Positions 136-64,000 of a DNA stretch of 64,000 bases are shown in pieces (the stretch's first letter is position 1; each line of letters opens with the position of its first letter). A program made the translations under genes and the position numbers. This DNA comes from an uncultured Gemmatimonadales bacterium. Its GTDB lineage: Bacteria; Gemmatimonadota; Gemmatimonadetes; Gemmatimonadales; GWC2-71-9. The DNA is taken from assembly GCA_963793205.1 (NCBI GenBank), contig CAWBZM010000003.1, positions 218,193 through 282,192 on the forward strand. The letters run 5' to 3'. The notes below the pieces were generated by a model that did no database searches, was not told where the DNA came from, and saw nothing but the letters and a program-made list of their open reading frames with translations.

Positions 136-219
136 GGGAACGGGGGACGGGGAACGGGAGTGAGGCCATCCCCACCGCCTCCCTCTTCCCCGTTCCCTCT
201 CCCCGTTCCCACTTCCCTG
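136..219. repeat. hairpin microsatellite element A (GGGGAAC-type arms plus conserved core)
   Basis: G-rich arm 136-159 (GGGAACG-like units), loop 160-180 carrying the reverse complement of GGAGGCGGTGGGGATGGCCTC, C-rich arm 181-219 (CCCGTTCCC-like units). It ends 2 nt from the dut stop codon. Confidence 0.8.
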
Positions 220-664: not shown

Positions 665-751
665 GAATCGGGAGGGAGGGGAGAAAACCAGGGCCGGGAA
701 TCGAGGGGCAAGGCGATCTCGCCTCGTCACCCTCGACCTCGACCCTCGACC
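665..751. repeat. small hairpin element F (TCGAGGG / CCCTCGA units)
   Basis: Left side carries GAATCGGGAGGGAGGGG and GGAATCGAGGGG. Central palindrome GGCGATCTCGCC at 712-723. Right side is CCCTCGA CCTCGA CCCTCGA (730-749). Lies between the ald stop and the dut start. Confidence 0.5.
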
Positions 752-17349: not shown

Positions 17350-17378
17350 CGTCCTGTCCTTGCTCGGTTCGGTCGGTC

Positions 17379-17441
17379 GGCGGGGAACACCCCCGCCCTC
17401 ATAACGAGCCGCCGTCCAGCCCAGGGGGCCAGGACGGCGGC
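17379..17441 (-). promoter_or_regulatory. two stem-loops in the rpsB-tsf spacer
   Basis: GGCGGGG/CCCCGCC at 17379-17397, and GCCGCCGTCC/GGACGGCGGC at 17408-17441. Confidence 0.4.
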
Positions 17442-17469
17442 GTACTGCTGGGTCCCGACACTGCGGGAG

Positions 17470-18360: not shown

Positions 18361-18534
18361 CGTGGAAACGTCATCCTTGCATAGGGCAGACACCGCGGTG
18401 CCTGCGTGGGGTTGGGATGTCCGCCGGCTTCATCTCGAGGGCCAACCCTGTTGCCAGGGCACCCGGACCTCGATCCAACGGCGTACAGGATTAGAGCGGC
18501 GGCCGCAGATCCTCCGCGACCGCCGCCCGACCGG

Positions 18535-26839: not shown

Positions 26840-26992
26840 CGAGGCGGAAGTTATGGTTTGGGACGGGGTTGCGCTAGGGCGGCTCACCGGCCCGAAGATA
26901 TCGCCTGGGCGATTGGGCTGTTGGCCGAGAGGGGGTTTGAGCCCCGGGAACGTTGCGGCTTGGGCACCTAGAACGATGTGCCGCCGAGCCGC

Positions 26993-28546: not shown

Positions 28547-28563
28547 GGTTGGAGAAAATAGGC

Positions 28564-28745
28564 GGGTACGCGGGTACGCGGGTAGGCGGGTACGTGGGTA
28601 CGCGGGTACGTGGGTACGTGGGTACGTGGGTACGTGGGTACGCGGGTACGTGGGTACGTGGGTAGACTAAAAGCGAAGGGAGAGATCCGTGAGGACCTCC
28701 CCCTTCCTGCGTAGCTACCCGCGTACCAACCTACCCCCGTACCGC
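28564..28745. repeat. hairpin microsatellite element B (8-mer GGGTACGY)
   Basis: About 13 tandem GGGTACGY units at 28564-28665. The loop has its own stem GAAGGGAGAG/CTCCCCCTTC. Degenerate reverse-complement units at 28709-28745 run directly into the rpsA stop codon. Confidence 0.85.
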
Positions 28746-30452
28746 CTACTCCTCCGCCGGGCTCTCGTCGATCACGGGACGCACAGGCGGGATGATCGGC
28801 TCGTCGGGATATCCGATCACGGCCAGTACGATCCGGTGATGGATCGGGTCGACCTCGAGCACCTTGAGATCCACCGCCTGGCCTTCCTTCACGGCGTCGC
28901 CGGGGTTCTCGATGTTGGCGATCCCGAGCTGGGACATCGGCACGAAGCCTTCGATGTCGTTGCCCATGTCGACCACCACGCCCTTGTCCATCAGGCGGGC
29001 GACGCGGCCCTTCATCTCGGTGCCGATCGGGAAGGTCTCGCCGATCTTGAGCCACGGATCCTCTTCCGCCTGCTTGAGGCCGAGGGAGATCCGCTTGTTG
29101 TCGCCGTCGATGTTGAGGATGACGACGTTCACGCCGTCGCCCTTCTTCACCACTTCCGACGGATGCTGCACCCGCTTGGTCCACGACATGTCGGAGATGT
29201 GGATCAGGCCGTCGATGCCCGGCTCGATCTCCACGAAGGCGCCGAAGCTGGTCAGGTTGCGCACCTTGCCGCTGATGCGGGTGCCGACCGGGTACTTGAG
29301 CGGCAGCACGGTCCACGGATCCTGCTCGGTCTGCTTCATGCCGAGCGAGATCTTCTCTTCGCTCTCGTCGACCTTGAGGACCACCGCCTCGATGGTCTCG
29401 CCGATGGAGACGATCTTGGACGGATGGCGGACGTTGCGGGTCCAGCTCATCTCGCTGATGTGCACCAGGCCTTCGATCCCCGGCTCCAGCTCCACAAAGG
29501 CGCCGTAGTTGGTGATCGAGACGACCTTGCCCTGCACCCGGGTGCCGACCGGATACCGCTCGGCGACCTTCTGCCACGGGTACGGCTGCAGCTGCTTCAT
29601 GCCCAGGCTGATGCGCTCACGCTGCCAGTCGATGTCGAGGATCTTGACCTCGACCTCGCGGCCGATGCCGACCATCTCGGTCGGGTGCGACACGCGGCCG
29701 TACGACATGTCGGTGATGTGCAGCAGGCCGTCGACACCGCCGAGGTCGATGAACGCCCCGAAGTCGGTGATGTTCTTGACGATGCCCTTCCGCACCTGGC
29801 CCACCGCCAGCTCCTTCATCAGGTGCTCGCGCTTGTGGGCCCGCTCGTTCTCCAGGATCACGCGACGGCTGACGACAATGTTCCGCCGGCGCTTGTTCAG
29901 CTTGATGATCTTGAAGTCGTAGCTCTGGCCCAGCAGCTCGTCGATATTCGGCACCCGCCGCAGGGCGATCTGGCTGCCCGGCAGGAACGCGTCGACGCCC
30001 ATCAGGTTCACCACCACGCCACCCTTGATCTTCTTGACCAGGGTGCCCATGACCGGCTGGTCGCTCTCGTGCGCCAGCTTGATCTTCTCCCACACCCGCA
30101 TGAAGTCGGCCTTCTTCTTGGAGAGCACAACGGCGCCCTCCTGGTCCTCGAGATGCTCGAGGAACACTTCGACTTCATCGCCCGGCTGGGGCGGATCCTT
30201 GAACTCGTCCAGCGGAACCGATCCCTCGGACTTGAAACCGACGTCGAGGATGACGGCGCTCTCGGTGACGCGCAGTACCTTCGACTTGACGATCTCGCCC
30301 TCGACGATCTGGGACATCGTCCCTTCGTACATCGAGAGCATCTGCTCGTATTCGGCTTCGGAATAGTCCTCGTCATACAGATCCGCGCGGACCCGGAGGC
30401 CGGCGGACAGGGCGGGACGTTGCTCGATGGCGGTGGAGGTCTCAGCAGGCAC
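28746..30452 (-). CDS. rpsA: 30S ribosomal protein S1
   Basis: Six S1 domains. GTG at 30452 is preceded by AAGGA and preferred over the ORF-track start at 30716. Confidence 0.9.
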   Translation of the reverse strand: MPAETSTAIEQRPALSAGLRVRADLYDEDYSEAEYEQMLSMYEGTMSQIVEGEIVKSKVLRVTESAVILDVGFKSEGSVPLDEFKDPPQPGDEVEVFLEHLEDQEGAVVLSKKKADFMRVWEKIKLAHESDQPVMGTLVKKIKGGVVVNLMGVDAFLPGSQIALRRVPNIDELLGQSYDFKIIKLNKRRRNIVVSRRVILENERAHKREHLMKELAVGQVRKGIVKNITDFGAFIDLGGVDGLLHITDMSYGRVSHPTEMVGIGREVEVKILDIDWQRERISLGMKQLQPYPWQKVAERYPVGTRVQGKVVSITNYGAFVELEPGIEGLVHISEMSWTRNVRHPSKIVSIGETIEAVVLKVDESEEKISLGMKQTEQDPWTVLPLKYPVGTRISGKVRNLTSFGAFVEIEPGIDGLIHISDMSWTKRVQHPSEVVKKGDGVNVVILNIDGDNKRISLGLKQAEEDPWLKIGETFPIGTEMKGRVARLMDKGVVVDMGNDIEGFVPMSQLGIANIENPGDAVKEGQAVDLKVLEVDPIHHRIVLAVIGYPDEPIIPPVRPVIDESPAEE

Positions 30453-46544: not shown

Positions 46545-47683
46545 TCGGGCTCCACCCGGGCAGGGACGGTGCCATCAGCGAGACGCAGGCGAAAGGGTCT
46601 GCCAACGGGGAAATCTGGGCGGCGGCGCAGCACCCCGCCATCCTCGCCCAGTGCCACACTATAGCCGCGCTCCAGCACCCGCAGGGGCGACAACGCGTCC
46701 AGTTGGGCCGCATAGCGTTCGAGGTCGCGCCGGTGCCGCTCCAGTCGCTGGTCGAGCGCACCCTGCAACCGATCCCCGGTCCGGGCCAGTCGTTCGCGCG
46801 CCAGGCGGGTGCCGCGTCCGAGTGCGTTGCCGAGACGAAGTCCCAGCGAGGCCACCTGGCGACGGAAATCGGCGGCGTCGGGCACCGCCAGCTCCATCGC
46901 GGCGGAGGGCGTGGCGGCCCGGATATCGGCAATCAGGTCGGTGAGCAGGAGATCGGTCTCGTGTCCCACGGCGGAAATGGTCGGAATGCGGAGGGCAGCG
47001 AGCGCCCGGCACACTCCTTCGTGGTTGAAAACGGCCAGATCTTCGCGGGCACCACCGCCCCGGGCCAGCACGCAGAGGTCGAGCCCCTCATAGCGGTTGA
47101 CGCGTCCAAGGGCCCGGATCATCTCCTGCGGCGCCTCGGCACCCTGGACGCGGGTGCCGAAGACCAGGAGCTCGACCGAAGACCACCGGCGGCGCGCCAC
47201 GGTCATGATATCCCGCAGTGCCGCGCCATCGAGGCTGGTGACGATCGCGATCCGGTTGGGGACCTGGGGCAGCGGGCGCTTGCGGTCGATGTCGAACAGG
47301 CCATCCTTGGCGAGCGCCTCCCGGATCCGCCGCAGCGCGAGTTCCGCGGCGCCGGTTTTATCGGTGACCAGCAGCTCCGAGACCGTCAGCCGAAACTCGC
47401 CCCGTTCCTCCCAGAGCGTCGGCGTGCCGTAAATGAAAACCTGGCTGCCCTCCTCTGGCGGAGTCTTGTAGCGCTGGGCCTGAGTGCGCCACATCACGCA
47501 GCGTATCTGGGCCCCCGCGTCGCCCAGAGTGAAGTACCAGTGGCCACTGCGATACACCTTGAGACCGCTCATCTCTCCGCGGATCCAGAGCGGGCCGATG
47601 CCCTGCTCCACCGCGCGCCGAGCCGCCCGGGCAAGTTGCGTCGGGGTCCACGGATTCTGGGAGAAGAGATCGGGCTCGGGCAT
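46541..47683 (-). CDS. xseA: exodeoxyribonuclease VII large subunit
   Basis: OB-fold N-terminus, then VTSLDGAALRD, ARGGG, ISAVGHETD motifs. Confidence 0.9.
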   Translation of the reverse strand: MPEPDLFSQNPWTPTQLARAARRAVEQGIGPLWIRGEMSGLKVYRSGHWYFTLGDAGAQIRCVMWRTQAQRYKTPPEEGSQVFIYGTPTLWEERGEFRLTVSELLVTDKTGAAELALRRIREALAKDGLFDIDRKRPLPQVPNRIAIVTSLDGAALRDIMTVARRRWSSVELLVFGTRVQGAEAPQEMIRALGRVNRYEGLDLCVLARGGGAREDLAVFNHEGVCRALAALRIPTISAVGHETDLLLTDLIADIRAATPSAAMELAVPDAADFRRQVASLGLRLGNALGRGTRLARERLARTGDRLQGALDQRLERHRRDLERYAAQLDALSPLRVLERGYSVALGEDGGVLRRRPDFPVGRPFRLRLADGTVPARVEPE

Positions 47684-47817
47684 GGAGACGGGGGACGGGA
47701 ACGGGGAACAGGGAACAGGGAACGGGGAACGGGGAACGGGGAACGGGGAACGGCTCGGAGGTTGGGGGATTGCCGAGTCGCCACCCTGTCCCCGTTCCCC
47801 CTTCCCTGTTCCCCGCA
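47684..47817. repeat. hairpin microsatellite element C (GGGGAAC-type arms plus conserved core)
   Basis: About 10 G-rich heptamer units at 47684-47753 start directly after the xseA ATG complement. Loop stem CTCGG/CCGAG encloses AGGTTGGGGGATTG. C-rich arm at 47787-47817 ends 2 nt from the folD stop. Confidence 0.85.
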
Positions 47818-47819
47818 GT

Positions 47820-48701
47820 TCACATCTTCTGTTTCAGGGCCTGCAGCGTGTTGGCGAGCAGCATCGCGATGGTCATCGGACCGACGCCGCCCGGGACTGG
47901 AGTGATGGCAGAGGCAATCGCGGCCACCGGTTCGTACGCGACATCGCCGGTGAGGCGATAGCCGCGCGGCCGTGAGGCATCGTCCACGCGATTGATGCCA
48001 ACATCGATAACCACCGCGCCGGGACGGACCATGTCGGCGGTGACAAACTCCGCCTTGCCGATCGCGGCGATGAGGATGTCGGCGGTGCGGGCGACTGCAG
48101 GGAGGTCGCGGGTGCGGGAATGGCAGACCGTCACCGTGGCATCGCCGCCAGCGCCGGTCTGAATCAGCAGATTGGCCATCGGCTTGCCGACGATGGTGCT
48201 GCGCCCGATGACGACGGCGTGTGCTCCCCTGGTCTCGATCCCGTTCCGGATCAGCATCTGCTGGACGCCATAGGGCGTGCAGGGCCGGAGGGCGGTCGGG
48301 TCACCAATGACGAGCTTGCCGACGTTCACCGGATGGAACCCGTCGACATCCTTCGCGGGGTCGACCCGCAGCAGCACCTTCTCGGTGTTGATGTGCTTGG
48401 GCAGCGGCAACTGCACCAGGATACCGTGAATCGCCGGATCGTGATTCAGGCCATCGATGATGGCGAGGAGATCGGCTTCATTGATCTCGGCCGGACGCTC
48501 GATCTTGACCGAGTGCATCCCGGCCTCGAGGCAGGCCTTCTCCTTACTGCCGACATACGCCTTGGATGCAGGGTTTTCCCCCACCAGGACGACAGCGAGG
48601 CCGGGCCGGACCCCTTTCGCCGCGAGCACGCGGCACTCCGCGGTGACTTCCTCCCGAATGGTCTTGCCGAGGGCGACGCCATCGATGATCCGAGCACTCA
48701 T
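47820..48701 (-). CDS. folD: bifunctional methylenetetrahydrofolate dehydrogenase/cyclohydrolase
   Basis: Full-length FolD ([32 protein letters not shown]). Confidence 0.93.
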
Positions 48702-50275: not shown

Positions 50276-50344
50276 GCGATCTATCTCCAGGAGCGCCTGA
50301 CCTGCCGCTCCGTCATGGCGTACCGGCCCGAATGCGGACCGGCG

Positions 50345-54480: not shown

Positions 54481-54674
54481 AGTGACAGGGAGACGGGCGG
54501 GCCGGCGGTCAGGTGCCTCGCCGGATGCGCCACCTTGAGATGTGACATTCAGGACCTCGACAGGTGCAACGAGTGATCGCCCCTCCAAGCGCCTCCCGGC
54601 AACAACGCGGGGTCGAGGGCGGCACTCCCGTGCGCTCCCGACCCCTGCTGACCCGCGCGCGGGAGCTGGCCGAA

Positions 54675-55235: not shown

Positions 55236-55294
55236 GCTCTCCGTGTTGGAGCGACTCGACCGCGCCGCCCTCCGTGTCGTGCCAGTCACCCACC

Positions 55295-55331
55295 GGGCGA
55301 CCCGCTGGGTCGCCCTTACCTCAGGCTGAGG
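55295..55331 (-). promoter_or_regulatory. two adjacent stem-loops in the infC-rpmI spacer
   Basis: GGGCGACCC-GCT-GGGTCGCCC at 55295-55315, and CCTCAG-G-CTGAGG at 55319-55331. Confidence 0.35.
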
Positions 55332-55344
55332 TGTGCTACCCCAG

Positions 55345-55866: not shown

Positions 55867-55882
55867 TGCGACTCTCCCGCGC

Positions 55883-55920
55883 AAAAGAAAACCGGACACC
55901 CTGATTCCCCTGGGGTGTCC
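55883..55920 (-). terminator. intrinsic terminator/attenuator immediately upstream of infC
   Basis: Minus strand reads GGACACCC-CAGGGGAATCA-GGGTGTCC followed by GGTTTTCTTTT. This is the only canonical hairpin-plus-U-tract I found in the window. Confidence 0.7.
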
Positions 55921-56049
55921 GGCAACAGAGGTGCGACGCTGCGGCGCCACACCAGACCAACTCTCTGTCTGCAGGACCCGGTGGCACCGGCGGAGACTGC
56001 CCGGGCGCTGGGGTGGGGGCCATCGGCCCCACTTCATTGAACGGGGGCA

Positions 56050-56078
56050 AAGCTAGCCACAGGCAGGGGTTTAGACAA
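56050..56078 (-). promoter_or_regulatory. putative sigma70-type promoter of the infC-rpmI-rplT leader
   Basis: Minus-strand TTGTCT (56078-56073), 17 nt spacer, TAGCTT (56055-56050). Confidence 0.4.
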
Positions 56079-56087
56079 GCCTGAGGT

Positions 56088-56324
56088 GGGGAACGGGGAA
56101 CGGGGGAGCCGCCCGGAGGTCAGGGGATTGCTTCGTCGGCCGCAAGCGGCCTCCTCGCAATGACAGCAGAACCGCCAGCCCGTTCCCTTTTCCCCGTTCC
56201 CCGTTCCCCGTTCCCCGTTCCCCGTTCCCTCTTCCCCGTTCCCCGTTCCCTTTTTCCCGTTCCCCGTTCCCTCTTCCCCGTCCCGTTCCCTTCCCGTTCC
56301 CCGTTCCCCGTTCCCTCTTCCCCG
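56088..56324. repeat. hairpin microsatellite element D (GGGGAAC-type, strongly asymmetric arms, conserved core)
   Basis: About 3 GGGGAAC units at 56088-56106. A 72 nt structured loop contains CCGGAGGTCAGGGGATTGC. About 21 CCCGTTC-type units at 56179-56324 run directly into the MBL hydrolase stop codon. Confidence 0.88.
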
Positions 56325-57235
56325 TTACCCGGCCTTGGCCACCACCTCGGCCAGCCCGATCCCCTTCCCCTCCGCCACCACCCGCCCCATCGCGACCTCG
56401 GGGTCATGCTCGAAAATGAACCGCCAGCCCCCGCGAACCGCCTCGGCCAGCAGTGTCCGCTTCGTTTCCAGGGTCCGGAGCGGCTCCAGGTCGTAGCCCA
56501 TGATGTAGGGCAGCGGCAGGTGGGCCGAGGTTGGGATGATGTCGCCCAGAAACACCGCGGTCTCGCCGCCACTGCGGACGACGATGCTCTGGTGCCAGGG
56601 CACGTGCCCCGGGGTCATCATCGCCGAGATGCCCGGCAGAATTTCGCCCGGCCCATCAAGCAGCTTCCACTTCCCGGCGGCCGCGATCGGCTCGAAGTTG
56701 GGCGGCAGATAGCTGGCCCGGGTCCGCTCATTGGTATGGCGGGCGAACTCGAGCTCGTTCTGCTGCACGACGTAGGTGGCGTTGGCAAACGCCGGCGAGG
56801 GTCCAGGGTCGAGTCAGCGGCTGCGCGTCGGCTCGGCGGCTCGGCGGCCACCGTGTTCCCCCCGGCATGATCAAAGTGCAGGTGGGTGTTGATCACCTAT
56901 CGGACGTCATCGGGCTGATGCCCCGCCTCCCGAATGGCGTCCTCCAGCTGGGTCGGCCCGGGAGCGCCGCCATTCCTGACGCCGTAGATCTGGAGGAACT
57001 TCTCGTCCTCCTTGTTGCCCAGACCGGTATCGACCAGGACCAGCCCATCCGGATGCTCGATCAGCAGGCAGCGCATCGCGAGCGGAATGCGGTTCTTCTC
57101 ATCCGGCGCCATCCGCCTGGACCAGAGCGGCTTGGGGACGACGCCGAACATGGCGCCGCCATCGAGCCGCTGAGCGCCTCCTTCCAGGAGGTGGCAGCGG
57201 AGTGCGCCGAGCTGAAAGGTCCGAATCAGAGCCAT
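56325..57235 (-). pseudogene. MBL-fold metallo-hydrolase, in-frame TAG plus frameshift as sequenced
   Basis: N-terminal 112 aa ORF ends DDVR-TAG and continues in the same frame as VINTHLHFDHAGGNT. A frameshift between about 56770 and 56850 leads to the C-terminal ORF (FANATYVVQQNELEF...TPGHVPWHQ). Confidence 0.8.
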
Positions 57236-57280
57236 GAGGCAGGAAGGGAGAGGGAGAAGGAAGGGCGAGGCCGACGGAGA

Positions 57281-58123
57281 TCACCCCGGGCCGACGACCC
57301 GCTTGGAACGTTTCTTCATCCGCGGCCGAGGGCGGCACATCGCCTCGAGGTCCGCCAGCGTGCGGGCGCCCCGCTCCCGGGCCAGGAGGATGAGCCGCTC
57401 CAGCAGTTCGGCGGTGGCCATCGCATCACCGGCGGCGCGGTGACGAGCCGGGTTCTCCAGCCCGAAGTGGTAGCTCAGGCTGTCGAGGCTCGCGGACTCG
57501 AGCTGCGGCAGCAGCCGGCGCGCCAGGCGGACGGTGCAGATGTGCGAGCCGGCGAGCGCCAGACCGCGGGCCCGACGCACCTCGGCGGTCAGAAGCCCCA
57601 GTCGAAGCGGGCGTTGTGCGCCACGAAGATCCGGCCGGCGAGTGCGGCCAGCAGCTGGTCGGCGACCGCCTCGAAGATGGGCGCGCGCCGCACCATGGCG
57701 TCGGTGATCCCGGTCAGATGGGCGATCCGATGGCGGGATGCGGACGCCCGGGATTCACCAGCGAGTCGAACACCAGCTCCCGCGGGCACCGTGCAGCACC
57801 ACCACGGCCACCTCGGTGACCCGGTCGGGGCCGGTGGCCCGCATCCCCGTGGTCTCCACGTCCACCACCGCGAAGGCGCAGTCCTCCAGCAGCGGCGAGC
57901 CCTGTGCCTCCGCGACCAGCGCCCAGCGACCGTCCTCCAGCTGCCGCACGCGCGGGTCGGCGCCGAGCAGGGCGACGGCGAGCCGCTCCGACACTGCCCG
58001 CGGGGCGCTGGCGCAGACCCAGGACCTCGCGGGCCAGCCGGTCGGCGTCGCACGGCCGCCGCCCATGCAGCGTCCAGGCGCGGTCGGCCAGCGTGCGTCG
58101 GGATAGGCTGTCAGCCCGGTCAC
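57281..58123 (-). pseudogene. DnaQ/PolIII-epsilon-type 3'-5' exonuclease, multiple frameshifts as sequenced
   Basis: Exo motifs are spread over three frames: FAVVDVETTG, ELVFDSLVNPGRP, FVAHNARFDWGF, HRAAGDAMATAEL. The GTG at 58123 overlaps the arcA stop. Confidence 0.7.
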
Positions 58124-59348
58124 AGGGCCTCTCGCCGGAGCGGCAGCGACATGCAGCGGGGGCCGCCGCCGCCCCGCACCAGCTCGTCCCCTCGATGGTG
58201 ATCACGGTGCGGTGCTTGGTATCGGCCAGTCATCGAACGCCGACGAAATCGACGCTGGACACCACCCGGAACCCGGCGGCCTTCAGAGCTTCGAGGGTCG
58301 CCTCGTTGCGCCGATAGCTCAGGATCATGCCCGGCGCGAGCGCCAGGAAATTGCAGGCGGAGGTCCACTGCTCCCGCTCCTGCGTGGTCCGGTGCGCGCC
58401 GCCCACGAAGACGGCTCCAGCGGCAGACCCGACGTCCTGCAGCGCGGCGAAGAAGTTCGGCATCTCCCGCACCCCTTCGCCGCCCTTTCCGCCGGTGCAG
58501 CACGGCCAGCCGCTCCGGCCCGATGAAGTAGGGCGGATAGACCACGCAGAGCTCCCGGTCCACCTGGGTGAAGAGCATGTCCAGGTGGATGGCGGTCGGC
58601 TCCTTGGGCATCACGACGATGATCACATCGGTCACTTGCCGCCGCTCGAACAGCACCTCGCACAGCTGGTCGAGCGCGGCGGGCGAGGACCGCTCGCTGA
58701 AGCCCACGAGCAGCAGGTCGTCCCGCAGAAGATGGACGTCGCCGCCCTCCAGGGTGTAGTTGCTCCGCCGCTCCTCCGACCCGTCGTACAGGAGCCCGGC
58801 GTTGGCCAGCTCCGGGATGGAAGCGGAACAGCGTCTTGATCAGCAGTTCTTCGGTCCAGCGCACCCCGTGGCGCATCGAGCCGACCACCGCGTGCTCGCC
58901 GATCACCACGCCGATGTCCCGGGGAAGAAGAGATTGGGCAGCGGCGGAAGGATGTAGCCCGACCTCGTTGAGCGCCTGCGCGATCGGCCCGGCCTCCTCC
59001 TCCGCCCCCTCGATGATGCACCCGGCTGAGTGCCGCCGGTCAGGTCGTTCAGCGCCGGCCGAGAGCGTCGGAGGGGACCACGTCCATGGTCTTGGGGATG
59101 AAGAATTCCCGCGCCTCGGGCTGCTCCAGGACCTCGGCCAGCAGGTCGCCGACCTGAGTGCACCCGCGCGAAGCGCTCCAGCACCGCGACGAACGGCGGT
59201 GCTCCCGCTGGGCGATCTCCAGCTCGATGATGTCGTCGTAGAGGTAGTCGTCCCGGTTCCCCGGCGTGACCGCCTGCAGCTCGGGGCCGGGCGTGTGGAC
59301 CAGGACGGACTGGAGCGCGCCGATTTCGGAGGTGATGTGGACGGGCAT
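58120..59348 (-). pseudogene. arcA: arginine deiminase, multiple frameshifts as sequenced
   Basis: ADI-like segments are found in all three frames, from the N-terminal MPVHITSEIGALQSVLVHTPG to the C-terminal GGGGPRCMSLPLRREAL. Confidence 0.75.
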
Positions 59349-59383
59349 GCGGGAAAGTAGGGGGACGGAAGCGGGAGGTGGCC

Positions 59384-59577
59384 CGCAGATTACACATCGT
59401 CCGCAGATGGCGCAGATGACGCAGATGAGCGCAGATGAGCGATCAGATGAGCGCAGATGACGCAGATGACGCAGATGACGCAGATGACACAGATGGCGCA
59501 GATGACGCAGATGGCGCAGATCGCGCAGACTGAAGCTAGATGGCGCAGATTAGTCTGCGCCATCTGCGTCATCTGTG
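59384..59577. repeat. hairpin microsatellite element E (9-mer CGCAGATGR)
   Basis: About 15 tandem CGCAGATGR units. Perfect 12 bp terminal hairpin AGATGGCGCAGA-TTAG-TCTGCGCCATCT at 59538-59565, plus a further inverted unit. Ends 4 nt from the rex stop. Confidence 0.85.
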
Positions 59578-59581
59578 GACC

Positions 59582-60207
59582 CTAGCGGTTGGTCAGCGCG
59601 TAGCTCAGCGTCTCCAGCTCCAGGGCCAGGTTCACGTTCTTCACCGACGACATCGTCGGGCACATCGAGCTGCACCGGGGCAAAATTGAGAATCGCCTTG
59701 ACCCCGGCGTGCACCAGCCGTGTCGGCCAGGGCCTGCGCCGCCTCGGCCGGGGTCACCAGCACGGCGATATCCACCGGGTGTGCCGCTGAGCTCGCCTTC
59801 CAGGTCCCTCACGTCGCGGACGGTGAGGCCATTCCAGTGCTTGCCCGATCTTCCCGCGGTCGGCGTCGAAGATCGCGACGATCTCGAATCCCCGCTGCTT
59901 GAACCCGCGGTACTGGACCAGGGCGCTGCCGATCTTCCCCGCCCCGATCATCGCCACCCGGTAACTGCCGTCGCAGGCCGAGGATTTCCCGCAGTCGACG
60001 CACCAGCTCGGGCACCGCGTAGCCCAATCCCCGTTTGCCGAACGAGCCGAAGAAGGACAGATCCTTCCGGACCTGGGCGGAGGTCGTCCCGCCGCGAGCG
60101 GCGAGCGCCTCGGAGCTGACCGTTTCCCGCCCCTCCTCTTCGAATTCTTCGAGGAAGCGCAGGTAGAGGGACAGACGGCGGACGGTGGACTCGGCGATCT
60201 TGCGCAT
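59582..60207 (-). pseudogene. rex: redox-sensing transcriptional repressor Rex, multiple frameshifts as sequenced
   Basis: N-terminal winged helix (STVRRLSLYLRFL...AQVRKDLSFFGSFGKRGLGY), Rossmann segment MIGAGKIGSALV and C-terminal VKNVNLALELETLSYAL lie in different frames. Confidence 0.75.
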
Positions 60208-60212
60208 CGGTT

Positions 60213-60230
60213 TTGTGAAAGATTTCACAA
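60213..60230 (-). promoter_or_regulatory. Rex operator (ROP box)
   Basis: TTGTGAA-ATCT-TTCACAA on the minus strand matches the TTGTGAAnnnnTTCACAA consensus exactly. It ends 5 nt upstream of the rex ATG. Confidence 0.8.
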
Positions 60231-60272
60231 ATCTAGCCGCAAGCCGACGCGCCGGAGGTCAGGGGAAGGGAT

Positions 60273-61053
60273 TCAGCCGCGGGGTGTCGAGGCCTGAAAC
60301 AGGCGGACGAATCTGGGGTGGTGCGAGCTCTTCGGCCGGGTGGCGGGGAGAGTCTCCGCCTGGGCGAGCCACCCGCCGACCGTCGCCGGCTCGGCCCGGT
60401 CAGTTCCCGGAGTCCCCGCATCAGCTGCTTGCGCCGGAAGCCGAAGAGTCCCACCACCAAGCGCCGGAAGGGGAGCACTTCGCGTCCGGCGATGAGGGGC
60501 TCCGCCAGCGGCGTCAGCCGTAGCACCGCCGAGTCCACCCTGGGCGGCGGGCGGAAGGCGCCGGCCGGGACCGTGAAGAGCCGCTCCACCCGGGCCACGG
60601 CCTGGACGCCGACGGTCAGGGCGCCGTAGTCGCTGCCGCCGGGAGCGCGCCGCAACCCGGTCCGCCACTTCCTTCTGCACCAGGAAGACGATGCGGCGCG
60701 GCCGCGGCGGCCGGAGCGCCTGGTCGAGCAGCGGCGACGTGATGTTGTAGGGGATGTTGCCGGCGACCGCGACCGGCCCCGGCCCCGCCAGCGCGTGCCA
60801 GTCCACCTCGAGCGCATCGCCCTCGACGAGTTCCAGCCGGGGGAACCGGCGCCGCAGCTCCGGCACCAGGTCGCGGTCCTTCTCGATCGCGATGAGCCGA
60901 CCCGCGCCCTGCGTACAGCTGGGCGGTAGGCCGCCCGGTCCCGGCCCGATTTCCAGCACGGTGTCGCCCGGTGCGGGCTCCAGCGCGCCCGCGATCCGGC
61001 GCAGGAGGTTGGGATCGCGCAAGAAAATGCTGGCCGAGGGATTTCTTGGGCAT
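60273..61053 (-). pseudogene. rsmA: 16S rRNA (adenine1518/1519-N6)-dimethyltransferase, multiple frameshifts as sequenced
   Basis: MPKKSLGQHFL, then RDPNLLRRIAGAL...VLEIGPGPGGL, NIPYNITSPLL, FLVQKEVADR and PPPRVDSAVLRL are spread over three frames. Confidence 0.75.
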
Positions 61054-61125
61054 GGAACCAATGTATCAGGGGCGGCTCGGCGGCTCGGCGAGCAGAGTAG
61101 CCTGCCTGCTTCCCTACTGGCGGAG

Positions 61126-62695
61126 TCACCGATCCGCAATCACCAGCAGCGTCCGGTCGTCCATCGGCTTGATCTCGGCCGCATCGGCTTCGGCGAAGAC
61201 CGCCCCGACGATCGCCTCCGGGCGTCAGATGGCGGCGGCAGGCGATTTCGCGCAGGAGCCGCTCCTCGGTAAAGGCACCGCCGCGTTCCCTGCTCCACCA
61301 GGCCGTCGGTCCAGAGACAGAGCAGGTCGTGCTCGGCGTTCCACGGCGACCTGCTGCAAGCCGATACTCTCCGCCGTGGCCAGTCCGAGGGGTGGGGCGG
61401 TGACGGCCAGCCGCTCCGGCGTCCCCACTCTGCGGAATCCGGAAGGCGTGCGGGTGGCCGGCGCTGGCGTAGGTCAGCCGCTCGTTGCGGGGATCCAGGA
61501 CGCCGTAGAACACGCGACAGGAACATCTCGGTGGAGGCCAGTTCGTCGCCGAGGCTGTCGAGCAGCGACGACCAGCGTCTCATCGGGGGTGTTCGAGCTG
61601 CCGGCGTGAATCCCGCCGGCGGACATGACCAGCGCCATGACCAGCGCGGCGGAGAAGCCGTGGGATGAGACGTCGCCCAGCATGACCCCCACCCGGCCGT
61701 CCCGAGCCGAGTGAAGGTGTAGAAGTCGCCGCCGACGCTGTCCGCCGGTCGGCAGATCGCGCGCCACGTCGGCATCGCCCTGCAGGACGACCGGCGAGGG
61801 CAGGAGGTTGAGCTGGAGGTCGTGGGCCAGTTCCAGCTCGCGCTGCAGCCGCTGCGGCGCACATCGCGCGCGACCAGCCGGGCGTTCTCGATGGCGGCGC
61901 CGATCTGGTTGGCCACGGCGGTGACCAGCTTGGCCTGCGAGGGGGTGAAGCTGTCGCCCCCCAGGCGGTCGGTGAGGTTGATGACGCCGACGCAGCGGGA
62001 CCCGGCGCCCGGGCGCGGCGTACTGGATCGGGATGCTGAGGAAGGCCTGGCCGCGGTAGCCGCGCTCGGTGGTCGTGCCGGGGTTCTGGGCCAGCCGGTC
62101 GGCGGGATCGTTGACGATGATGCGCCGCTCGCGGAACACCCGGGCCGCCACCGAGGCCCGATCGTCCACCGGCACCGGGAGCATGCCGCCGTGCGAGAAT
62201 CCGCGGGCGGCGACGGTCCGCAGCAGGCCCGGTCTCCTCGTCGTGCACCATGATCGAGGCCCGCCGCGCGCCGACCACATCGGCCACTTCCCGCACGATG
62301 GTCTGGGCCGCTTCCTCCAGCCGGACGGTGTGGCCCAGGATCTCGCTGATGGCGTAGAGGAGGTCGATCTCCTCGTAGCGGCCGGTCAGCTCGTCGGTGA
62401 TCTCCGCCGTTTCCCGCTCGGCGGTGAAGAAGGCAGCGAGAATACCCAGCAGCTGGGGCGACAGTTCGGCGGCGCGGGACTCGGTGACGGCGCCGATCTC
62501 GAGCCAGAAGCCCTGGGCATCGGGCACCGGGGCGAGCCAGGCCGACCCGGTCGGGGTCGGTACCAGGCCGGGCGCGAGAGGAATGGGGGAGAGAAGCCGG
62601 GGTCGATCCCGGCGCCAAAGGCGCGGAGGCCGCGACCGTCGTAGCGCCACAGGCGGACCCGGGCCCCCACCAGGGCGCCGAGGGCATCCGCCACT
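61126..62695 (-). pseudogene. GAF-domain PP2C (SpoIIE/RsbU-type) serine phosphatase, many frameshifts as sequenced
   Basis: GAF-like segment (EEIDLLYAISEILG...), then LELAHDLQLNLLP, SVGGDFY, VMLGDVSSHG, DGLVE and the C-terminal DDRTLLVIADR stop at 61126. The start is approximate. Confidence 0.65.
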
Positions 62696-62708
62696 GACTC
62701 GAGACCGG

Positions 62709-63183
62709 TCAGCGGCGCCGAAGTGTCATGCAGATGGAGTTCCCCGAGGCATTGAACTGGACGTCGTCCACCAGCTTCCGGATCAGGAAGAGGCCGCGTC
62801 CGCTGGCCCGGTCGAGCTCCTCGGGCATCAGCGGATCGACGATCTGGCGGGATCGAAGCCGGGCCCTGATCGGTCACCTCGACCTTCAGCAGATCACCCC
62901 CGAGTTCCGCCTGGACTTCCACCCACTTGGAGCGGTCCTCCTGGTTGCCGGCAATGATCGCGTTGGCGAGCGCCTCGGCGAGCGCGACCCGGAGGTTGAA
63001 CCGGAGCCGGCGGCAGAGCCAGCTGTCGGTGCAGAGGTGACGCATCAGGAGGTCAATGACTTCCTCAATGCACCCCACATCGCTCGGAACGCGGAGCGAC
63101 ACAGCGACCACGCTGCCGGTGCTGGAGGGCACCCGGCGGCGGCGGAGGCAGAGCCGCAGTTCGGCGGGGAGCGGTGCGGTCAT
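62709..63183 (-). pseudogene. anti-sigma-factor-type serine kinase (RsbW/SpoIIAB-like HATPase), frameshifted near the C-terminus as sequenced
   Basis: ALAEALANAIIAGN N-box and VEVTDQGPGF are followed in other frames by GRGLFLIRKLVDDVQFNASGNSICMTLRRR and the stop at 62709. Its start overlaps the STAS gene stop. Confidence 0.7.
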
Positions 63184-63521
63184 CCGGCGAACCCGCCGGC
63201 GGCACGCTCGGCGGTATCGCTGATGGCGAAGAGGGTATCCAGCTTGGTCAGCTCGAACAGGGAACGGAGGTCCTCGTTGAGTCCGGACAAGCGGAGCTCG
63301 CCACCCTGTTCACGCATCTTCTTGGAGATCGACACCAGGGCGCCGAGGCCGGACGAGTCGATGTACCCGGTACGGGAGAAGTCGATCACGAAGCGACGGT
63401 CTCCCTGGTCCAGGGCTTCCTGCACCGCGGCCTTGAGTTCCTGCCGGTTGCCCACGATGAGCTGGCCCTCGACCCGGATCAGGTAGACGCCGGTGGTATC
63501 CTTTGCGGCGCTGAACGCCAT
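63180..63521 (-). CDS. STAS-domain anti-sigma-factor antagonist (RsbV/SpoIIAA-like)
   Basis: 113 aa from the ATG at 63521, with the phosphorylatable-serine context DFSRTGYIDSSGLGALV. Confidence 0.85.
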   Translation of the reverse strand: MAFSAAKDTTGVYLIRVEGQLIVGNRQELKAAVQEALDQGDRRFVIDFSRTGYIDSSGLGALVSISKKMREQGGELRLSGLNEDLRSLFELTKLDTLFAISDTAERAAGGFAG

Positions 63522-63582
63522 GCGACTCCTCCAGGGGCCAGGGCCCGTTGACGACCGCCACTCTCCGGGGTGGCTCCCGGTG

Positions 63583-64000
63583 CTAGCGCAGCGGGCGAGA
63601 ATCGAGCGCTTCCGGGGCCTCGGCCCCCTGCAGCGCGACCATCGCCGCCACCTCCACAATATCCTCCGTACTCGCCCCGCGCGAGAGGTCGCTCATGGGT
63701 CGGGCGAGCCCCTGCAGCAGTGGGCCCAGGGCCGCAGCCTTGGCCAGCTGGTGCACCAGTTTATACCCAATATTGCCGCTGTCGAGGTCGGGAAAGACCA
63801 GGATGTTGGCTGCGCCAGCCAGCGGGGAGTCTGGCGCCTTCCGCTGGGCAATGTCGGGATCGAGGGCGGCATCGACCTGCAGTTCGCCGTCCACCACGAT
63901 ATCGGGCGCCAGTTCGCGGAACAGGGCGACCGCCTCCCGCACCCGGGCGATCCGTTCGCCGGCGGCGCTCCCCCGTGAGCTGTACGACAGGAACGCCACC
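63583..64000 (-). CDS. phosphate acetyl/butyryl-transferase family protein, C-terminal part (gene runs off the window)
   Basis: PTA_PTB-type C-terminus ([11 protein letters not shown]...[17 protein letters not shown]...[10 protein letters not shown]). It could be Pta or the C-terminal domain of a MaeB-type malic enzyme. Confidence 0.7.

Follow-up and report, generated by a model that had tools for sequence, protein, structure and literature searches.

Six intergenic spacers in a 64,000-nucleotide stretch of contig CAWBZM010000003.1 from an uncultured Gemmatimonadales bacterium (hereafter the window, about 67% GC) carry elements, designated e1 to e6, in which a tandem array of a 7-9 nt unit faces an array of the reverse-complement unit between two genes of the same strand. 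The elements lie next to the stop codon of the upstream gene, and the number of units varies at an orthologous site among relatives. A hairpin is kept at such sites while its sequence changes. The flagged element, e5, separates the gene of an MBL-fold hydrolase from infC. The chances are about even, in our estimate, that these elements are gene-end hairpins, serving in termination or attenuation or as exonuclease barriers, with stems built by tandem units and arms that change by slippage.

Architecture and position of the elements

The arrays were called by Tandem Repeats Finder (TRF), and the partner array of e3 was seen in the inverted-repeat search instead. An earlier interpretation of this DNA, made from the letters alone (the sequence-only reading), had listed facing arrays of a unit and its reverse complement in six spacers, and every array on its list was called by TRF. 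The flanking genes it had named, dut, ald, pccB, rpsA, xseA, folD, the MBL-fold hydrolase gene and rex, were confirmed by Pfam. The distances it had given, 0-10 nt to the upstream stop codon, agree with those read from the sequence, which are 4, 10, 0, 2-3, 0 and 0-4 nt for e1 to e6, respectively. The same is true of the distances to the next start codon, 0 nt between e4 and xseA and 17 nt between e3 and pccB.

Three elements (e1, e4 and e5) consist of the 7-nt unit GGGGAAC with its G3-4 tract, while e2 is made of TCGAGGG, e3 of the 8-nt unit GGGTACGY and e6 of the 9-nt unit CGCAGATGR, which contains no G-tract. Two adjoining GGGGAAC units with at most two mismatches were found 31 times in the window versus 1.07 expected, and all 31 matches fall within e1, e4 and e5. 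In the mRNA sense, e1 comprises a 5' arm of about 5.6 GGGGAAC-like units (180-217) and a 3' arm of about 3.3 GTTCCCC-like units (136-158, where the TRF unit as called is GGGAACG x3.3). Element e4 has about four GGGGAAC units (47784-47814, x4.3), a loop and about ten GTTCCCC units (47688-47753, ACGGGGA x9.6). In e5, about 22 GGGGAAC-like units (56179-56331, CCCGTTC x22.6) are followed by a 73-nt loop and 2.6 GTTCCCC units (56088-56105), and the TAA stop codon of the MBL gene (56325-56327) sits in the array itself, within the degenerate unit GGGTAAC. The strong asymmetry of the arms pointed out in the sequence-only reading is thus evident from the TRF copy numbers, 2.6 versus 22.6 in this element.

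The e3 array (28564-28664) contains 12.6 copies of GGGTACGY (TRF unit GGGTACGT), and its partner, of about 3.5 units, occupies 28715-28743; between the two arrays lies a near-perfect 14-bp hairpin at about 28674-28707. The e6 array of CGCAGATGR (x15.8 at 59402-59550, TRF unit CGCAGATGG) faces 2.4 units at 59554-59575, which gives in the mRNA sense a stem of 22-27 bp (59554-59580 with the nearest units) followed by surplus CAUCUGCGY units. In both long arrays TRF detected a three-unit super-period, of 21 nt in e5 (56179-56331) and of 27 nt in e6 (59402-59550), and these periods point to probable multi-unit duplication steps. Element e2 is weak, with ACCCTCG x3.4 at 729-751 against a lone partner unit, GGGAATCGAGGGG, and a small hairpin at its centre.

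Two other identities of the arrays were considered. A CRISPR was rejected, the units being 7-9 nt long and devoid of spacers, and coding repeats were rejected on the grounds that the arrays fall outside the open reading frames (ORFs) with coding-type GC3.

Orthologous spacers in relatives

Close relatives were taken from a protein search and a look-up of their contigs; comparison loci carry the prefix L. A metagenome scan with FolD, in which the relatives among the matches listed had at most 63% identity, served the TRF survey only.

The folD-xseA spacer, occupied by e4 in the window, contains GGGAACC arrays of 3.4 and 3.9 units in L121 (FolD identity 90%) and GGGAARC arrays of 4.6 and 4.6 units in L206 (90%) and of 4.4 and 4.4 units in L207 (89%). 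In L208 (88%) the hairpin is made of GAGAGTC-type units, in L124 and L125 (both 84%) it is built of CGGCGGCT/GAGCCGCC, and L122 has another palindromic element. All of these, as well as the element of the window, fold as hairpins. Unit number in the orthologous spacers of the window, L121, L206 and L207, a comparison that the sequence-only reading had proposed, does vary, with 3-5 units per arm in the relatives versus about 4 and about 10 in the window. L124 and L125, two assemblies with identical FolD, share 261 nt that are identical but for one extra 8-nt unit. This difference is a direct slippage polymorphism, and the slippage suggested earlier for such sites is thereby borne out.

The spacer between the MBL gene and infC, occupied by e5 in the window, carries in L210 the array (GCGGTAGG)4 facing (CGTCCCGT)5. 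The two arms are not exact complements: they form 6-bp helices in which 9 of 34 pairs are G.U wobbles, so that the match holds in RNA and not in DNA. In L208 the same spacer is rearranged and contains an inverted pair of (CGCAGAGGS)3. At the 3' end of rpsA, ordinary hairpins are present in L211 and L212, and the e3 array is absent. The hairpin is therefore kept at orthologous sites while the sequence that forms it changes.

The MBL stop codon of L210 also lies within a unit (GGGG-TAG-G versus GCGGTAGG; L210:2655-2690), as does that of the window at 56321-56331 (GGG-TAA-C versus GGGGAAC). In both lineages a degenerate unit encloses the stop codon, and the impression is that the arrays have grown out of the gene end. 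The 8-nt GCGGTAGG array yields TAG in all three frames. Unpaired arrays were seen as well: (GGGGAAC)3 in L065 exactly spans the interval from the rny stop to the folD start (L065:3073-3106), and in L210 the whole short spacer from the RNase T stop to the MBL start is taken up by C-rich 8-mers, (CCCGTTCT)3(CCCCGTTT)4 (L210:1697-1775).

Occurrence, arm polarity and stop-codon proximity in other phyla

A scan for exact (GGGGAAC)3, with one genome per species, returned at least 120 loci (L001-L120), and the statements in this section refer to the matches listed. They belong to Gemmatimonadota, Rhodanobacteraceae and other Lysobacterales (the genera Dyella, Rhodanobacter, Frateuria and Fulvimonas), several cyanobacterial genomes, Chloroflexota, Planctomycetota, Kiritimatiellia and others. 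In all 49 array pairs separated by at most 200 nt the order is 5'-(GGGGAAC)n-loop-(GTTCCCC)m-3', without a single reversed pair. The G-rich or purine-rich arm is also the 5' one in all six elements of the window and in the gene-end pairs of the relatives.

Half of the 44 paired GGGGAAC elements have the stop codon of a long ORF within 30 nt of a flank (22 versus 2.9 expected; the maximum in 200 trials of random placement was 9). Unpaired arrays located after stop codons show no bias in the sense strand (8 G-rich versus 11 C-rich), which weakens a simple model in which G-rich RNA after the stop is what matters. A count of exactly four units is frequent among the paired arms of other genomes, and one locus, L118, contains four elements within 8 kb.

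Folding and terminator features

Of the 25 longest local inverted repeats in the 64-kb window, 21 fall in elements e1 and e3 to e6 (Table 1). The folding of the mRNA-sense RNA was compared with that of dinucleotide shuffles. The idea that each spacer folds as one long imperfect hairpin holds for e1 (-55.8 kcal/mol, z -4.2), e3 (-91.8 kcal/mol, z -5.7), e4 (-73.7 kcal/mol, z -5.9) and e6 (-91.5 kcal/mol, z -5.0). For e2 the fold is marginal (-45.8 kcal/mol, z -2.1). The idea does not hold for e5, where the whole spacer is no more stable than its shuffles (z -1.4) and only about three units pair.

The RNA folds of the elements include the GC-rich stem-loop of an intrinsic terminator, while a U-tract after the stem was absent at all six elements upon inspection of the sequence. 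Canonical hairpin-plus-U terminators occur at chance level, with 5 sites versus 5.4 expected in the 46-60.5 kb region and none at the elements. Ordinary GC-rich hairpins without a U-run start 0-6 nt past the stop codon in other co-directional spacers of the window (Table 1). The earlier placement of the elements at terminator-type positions lacking U-tracts is consistent with these U-less hairpins at other stops and with the absence of enrichment of canonical terminators. The search of the elements against Rfam, also proposed in the sequence-only reading, found no family: at the gathering score the sole match in the window was a tRNA-Leu, and with E-values up to 0.5 the sub-threshold matches were to eukaryotic and viral miRNA precursors, generic hairpin look-alikes.

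Loops and nested elements

The loops of e4 and e5 are homologous, agreeing at 22 of 29 aligned positions once a 36-nt insertion in e5 is removed. What had been described as a self-pairing loop of e5 is instead a nested palindromic element. A similar small palindrome (GTCATTSCGAGG...CGAAGSAATC) is present in the loops of L107 and L118 and in L122/L123, where in L122 it lies in the same spacer (L122:4945-5010). The similarity suggests that a second small element lands in repeat-built hairpins.

Four loci of Dyella tabacisoli have homologous A-rich loops, each about 88 nt long and flanked by GGGGAAC arrays of 10-16 and 2-4 units; together they make up a dispersed family in which the core is conserved and the arms vary in length. 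Apart from these copies and the e4/e5 pair of the window, no common loop motif was found across the paired GGGGAAC elements. A GGAGG...GGGGAT motif that seemed to be present in e1 failed in alignment. No target-site duplications were seen at the elements, the genome being compared over 64 kb only. The units of e3 and e6 had no match among the comparison loci gathered by then (at most 213), and e2 was likewise unique.

Assembly quality and broken genes

Between 56800 and 64000 the coding phase changes at intervals of a few hundred bases, and the genes for ADI, RNase T, the MBL hydrolase, Rex and an RrnaAD-domain protein are fragmented, whereas the genes at 0-56 kb, among them those surrounding e1, e3 and e4, are intact. 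The frameshift in the MBL gene adjoins an 8-nt tandem repeat within the gene, CGGCGGCT x3.9 (56818-56848), and the Pfam domains Put_DNA-bind_N and CoA_binding of Rex are found on separate fragments. Intact ADI, RNase T, MBL and rex genes are kept in L208 and L210. The use of recoded TGA or TAG was rejected: TGA is the stop codon of folD, and in the MBL gene the in-frame TAG is accompanied by frameshifts, so this gene is disrupted. The region 56800-64000 probably represents either poor consensus sequence or real gene decay. Because genes around e5 and e6 are broken, the exact unit counts of these two elements are approximate.

Gene neighbourhood and the infC leader

Homologues of PccB with 88-90% identity bear the name 'Gemmatimonadales bacterium' at NCBI, and the contig of L065, a Gemmatimonadales metagenome-assembled genome (MAG), has the order pheT-rny-folD-xseA as in the window, with 45-64% identity. 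The gene downstream of e5, infC, is the first of a long same-strand cluster, infC-rpmI-rplT-pheS-pheT-x-zapA-rny-folD followed by xseA-xseB-ispA-dxs. Element e4 is located at the boundary between folD and xseA, the one non-overlapping junction of the long cluster; rny and folD overlap, as do pheS and pheT.

Directly downstream of e5 lies a promoter-like site, TTGTCT and TAGCTT separated by 17 nt in the window, for which the consensus TTGnCn, 17 nt, TAGnTT is kept in relatives (L208:2755-2915, L209:2716-2870 and L210:2750-2940). It precedes an infC leader of about 150 nt with the motifs TGAAGCGGGG...CCCCCACC...GCCGGTGCGACCGGGTCC conserved in the window, L208, L209 and L210. No Rfam family, the L20 leader included, matched the leader, which is a candidate for a so far undescribed leader regulating the infC-rpmI-rplT operon. 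Since the promoter-like site and the leader come right after it, e5 belongs to the 3' end of the transcription unit of the MBL gene and stands ahead of the infC-rpmI-rplT operon.

The 15-30 nt before the start codons of dut, pccB and xseA are C/U-rich (660-690, 28547-28563 and 47684-47700, minus-strand sense) and lack a purine run resembling a Shine-Dalgarno sequence. The C-rich arm of e4 directly adjoins the start codon of xseA.

Table 1. Positions of the six elements and of associated features; ranks are those among the 25 longest local inverted repeats of the window
Feature	Position	Strand	Remarks	Basis	Inverted-repeat ranks
e1	136..217	-	hairpin 4 nt downstream of dut stop (222-224)	TRF	I21, I23
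e2	665..751	-	between ald stop (762-764) and dut start (657-659)	TRF	
e3	28564..28745	-	0 nt after rpsA stop (28746-28748); 17 nt before pccB start (28546)		I5, I6, I13
e4	47684..47817	-	fills folD-xseA spacer; folD stop 47820-47822, xseA start 47681-47683		I1-I4
e5 (flagged element)	56088..56331	-		TRF, inverted repeats, fold	I22, I24, I25
e6	59399..59580	-	0-4 nt after rex stop (59582-59584)	TRF	I7, I9, I14-I20
Nested small palindrome in e5 loop	56126..56167	-	GTCATTGCGAGGAGGCCGC...GCGGCCGACGAAGCAATC	alignment with e4 loop	
Promoter-like site and infC leader	55870..56075	-	directly downstream of e5	comparison with L208, L209, L210	
MBL-fold hydrolase gene	56325..57235	-	upstream of e5; TGG>TAG at 56897-56899 and a frameshift		
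rex gene	59582..60228	-	upstream of e6; split by several frameshifts		
Ordinary stop-proximal hairpins	50276-50344, 55290-55344, 17350-17469, 18394-18534, 26888-26992, 54589-54674				
Dyella tabacisoli shared loops	L012:6749-6836, L081:1435-1523, L086:798-887, L087:2256-2344				

Relation to described repeats and gene-end hairpins

The sequence-only reading named the short tandemly repeated repetitive (STRR) heptamer arrays of heterocystous cyanobacteria, which were reportedly introduced by Mazel et al. in 1990, as the nearest analogue. The consensi of the STRR units are CCCCA(A/G)T, TT(G/T)GTCA and CAACAGT. Like the elements of the window they are non-coding tandem heptamers, and STRR1, CCCCA(A/G)T, when read on the other strand and rotated, gives GGGGACT, one base from GGGGAAC. 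Unlike them, the STRR are defined by three unit consensi within a single group of cyanobacteria, a definition that does not include paired inverted arrays, whereas the window has GGGGAAC in a member of the Gemmatimonadales.

A closer analogue than the STRR is found in the arrays of GGGAATC in two Xanthomonas genomes (65% GC) and of GGGGA(C/T)T in Nostoc PCC 7120 (Rehm et al. 2015, PMC4692102). These arrays comprise 2-26 units, are intergenic in 89-93% of cases, mostly between co-oriented ORFs, and lie about 28 nt on average from the upstream ORF, with some overlapping the stop codon (PMC4692102). Each Xanthomonas genome contains 70-75 convergent array pairs, their G-rich strands facing inward, that are able to form stem-loops or cruciforms, so the earlier belief that no paired inverted equivalent had been described in a GC-rich lineage was mistaken (PMC4692102). 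Between Xcc and Xac, the arrays differ in length but not in site or in being single or paired; the repeat-bearing spacers are more conserved in gene context than control spacers (PMC4692102). The heptamers form G-quadruplexes (G4) in vitro, with four units as the preferred length, and no function or regulatory effect was found for the arrays (PMC4692102).

The elements of the window share with these arrays the tandem 7-nt unit with a G3-4 tract (e1, e4 and e5), the intergenic position between co-oriented genes near a stop codon, the convergent pairs and the turnover of length. They differ in phylum, Gemmatimonadota, and in the unit GGGGAAC. Moreover, the shared heptamer consensus does not cover GGGTACGY, CGCAGATGR, TCGAGGG or, in the relatives, CGGCGGCT, the GAGAGTC-type units and GCGGTAGG; the unit varies by site within one genome, and the arms are far more asymmetric (3 versus 22). 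The elements therefore belong to an already described repeat family in kind, but not in exact unit (PMC4692102).

The best functional analogue is provided by the REP/BIME elements of enterobacteria, with which the elements of the window have in common that they are extragenic hairpins at the 3' ends of genes, within operons or ending them. The REP/BIME elements were reportedly first described by Higgins et al. in 1982 and Stern et al. in 1984, and REPs are said by Liang, Rudd and Deutscher (2015) to be located within 15 nt of stop codons. REPs shield the upstream mRNA from 3' exonucleases and, when very near the stop codon, hinder terminating ribosomes. Unlike the arms and loops of the window, which are site-specific microsatellites, REPs represent one conserved imperfect palindrome per genome, mobilised by RAYT transposases (IS200/IS605-like).

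The 'I-shaped' terminators of Mycobacterium are an earlier case of hairpins without a U-tract. In high-GC bacteria, terminators with long stems and short U-tracts occur, and hairpins mark the processed 3' ends of Rho-dependent transcripts (PMC13613805). The elements resemble such hairpins in their GC-rich stems near the stop codon, in the lack of a U-run and in the proposed role in termination or in the protection of Rho-generated 3' ends, but the stems of the former cases are not built of tandem units and no arm polarity has been reported for them. The TAACTGA heptamers of marine Beggiatoaceae are intergenic, common to distant lineages and thought to be post-transcriptional signals (MacGregor 2015, PMC4679880). 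They are alike as abundant intergenic heptamer arrays and unlike in consisting almost wholly of direct repeats (169 direct sets versus one indirect repeat), with an AT-rich unit and 2-6 copies per set.

In the open-access literature searched, no description of such elements in Gemmatimonadota was found. New here are the Gemmatimonadota lineage, the GGGGAAC unit, the 8- and 9-nt and G-tract-less site-specific units, the strict polarity and the turnover among orthologs.

Interpretation

An action of the elements at the RNA level, by termination or stabilisation of the transcript through the hairpin, is what we infer. The genome would place GC-rich stem-loops lacking a U-tract right after stop codons, and at the boundaries of transcription units the hairpin in the RNA would signal termination or attenuation or else block 3' exonucleases. 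Short tandem units may have created the stems or extended them, each arm being a microsatellite that would gain and lose 7-9 nt units independently via replication slippage. Slippage of each arm would lead to fast turnover of the stem and to unequal arm lengths, with the surplus units being mostly neutral baggage. Elements with the shared GGGGAAC unit probably exchange sequence or spread within the genome.

Several observations weigh against gene-end hairpins acting in RNA. The sense RNA folds more stably than the antisense RNA in 7 of 15 cases, which gives no strand signal for a role at the RNA level. The folD-xseA spacer of L210 (FolD identity 87%) is 14 nt long and has no element, and L209 has none upstream of infC; these empty sites indicate that the hairpin is dispensable. 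The ordinary hairpins of the window show no bias in arm polarity, and a plain hairpin model leaves the polarity of the 49 pairs unexplained. Finally, the two longest arrays follow broken genes, which fits runaway neutral expansion better than function.

The last point leads to the quite improbable alternative that the elements are neutral mutational debris, generated by slippage where selection is weak, in 3' spacers and decaying genes, with inverted pairs arising by template switching and having no function. Rapid turnover, the variation in presence and absence among close relatives, the extreme asymmetry of the arms, the coincidence of the 8-nt tandem repeat in the MBL gene with its frameshift and the missing strand signal in RNA stability would all be expected of such debris. 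It accounts less well for the presence of some hairpin, including non-repeat ones, at the same gene ends in most relatives, for the pairing in L210 that is kept only through G.U wobbles, for a stop-codon adjacency about 7-fold above random across phyla among the matches listed, and for the more conserved gene context of repeat-bearing spacers than of controls (PMC4692102). An origin of the arrays in mis-assembly or in inflation by long-read consensus errors is far less probable still and barely credible. The frameshifts of the 56.8-64 kb region, in or beside which e5 and e6 with their irregular units are found, would fit it, as would the lack of a second assembly of the exact organism, the window proteins being singletons in 90% clusters. 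However, the same gene-end architecture occurs in independent assemblies from NCBI, ENA and JGI (L121/L209, L206, L207, L208, L210, L124 and L125) and in isolate genomes of Dyella, Rhodanobacter and Fulvimonas, and e1, e3 and e4 stand among intact genes. Assembly artefact, which the sequence-only reading had named as a possible undoing of its claims, is thereby excluded for the class of elements by independent assemblies of relatives, although not for the exact unit counts.

The elements could also represent a mobile or gene-converting family resembling MITEs or REPs, in which a core with inverted heptamer arrays has spread to gene ends where insertion is tolerated or targeted. This we consider rather unlikely. 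The homology of the e4 and e5 loops outside the 36-nt insertion, the common loop of the four Dyella tabacisoli loci, the clustering in L118, the presence of GGGGAAC in many phyla and the other small palindromes hosted by loops speak for such a family, whereas the remaining loops are unrelated between elements and genomes, and units of 7, 8 and 9 nt differ by site, with e3 and e6 unique among the comparison loci. In addition, neither target-site duplications nor a transposase were seen, no screen aimed at Y1 transposases having been made; the folD-xseA element appears to be inherited at one site with gradual unit change in relatives at 87-91% FolD identity, and the arrays seem to have grown from local sequence, given the stop codon inside a degenerate unit. 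An explanation centred on G4, to which we likewise assign a low probability, holds that the G-rich arrays (GGGGAAC, GGGTACGY and TCGAGGG) act through G4 in DNA or RNA close to gene ends, with the C strand forming i-motifs and the inverted partner being secondary or competing, as proposed for GGGAATC and GGGGA(C/T)T (PMC4692102). By inspection, arrays of four or more GGGGAAC units match the quadruplex motif G3+N1-7 and so may form G4, as related heptamers do in vitro (PMC4692102). Among the matches listed, the exactly four units in many paired arms are in line with this, and the G-arm-5' polarity suggests that the G-rich strand itself matters. Yet the same architecture and position are seen in elements devoid of G-tracts (CGCAGATGR in e6, CGGCGGCT and the GAGAGTC type), arms of 2.6-3.3 units are too short for an intramolecular G4, the unpaired arrays listed have no sense preference, and no regulatory effect was found (PMC4692102).

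The polarity also permits a wider, though unlikely, proposal, namely a cross-phylum class of self-renewing gene-end elements with obligatory polarity, the G- or purine-rich arm being 5' on both strands, which would arise de novo around the stop codon. The polarity would then stem from a specific mechanism undescribed for bacteria, and microsatellite dynamics would keep creating and tuning terminators or insulators. One candidate is fold-back or template-switch synthesis primed by the nascent G-rich strand; another is a bidirectional block of transcription that might be aided by G-rich RNA, R-loops or G4.

Implications

Heptamer arrays have reportedly been noted beside bacterial genes since 1990, when the STRR were described. 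The elements analysed here tie the phenomenon neither to one unit nor to the potential to form G4 and extend it to an uncultured soil phylum, with the identical heptamer GGGGAAC and a strict polarity in many phyla. If the elements are neutral, they would be a clean natural archive of how slippage and template switching mutate high-GC genomes. Should the hairpins terminate or shield transcripts, slippage of microsatellites would drive the evolution of gene-end signals, making the read-through between neighbouring genes rapidly tunable, and unit number would be a practical marker for strain typing in lineages available as MAGs only.

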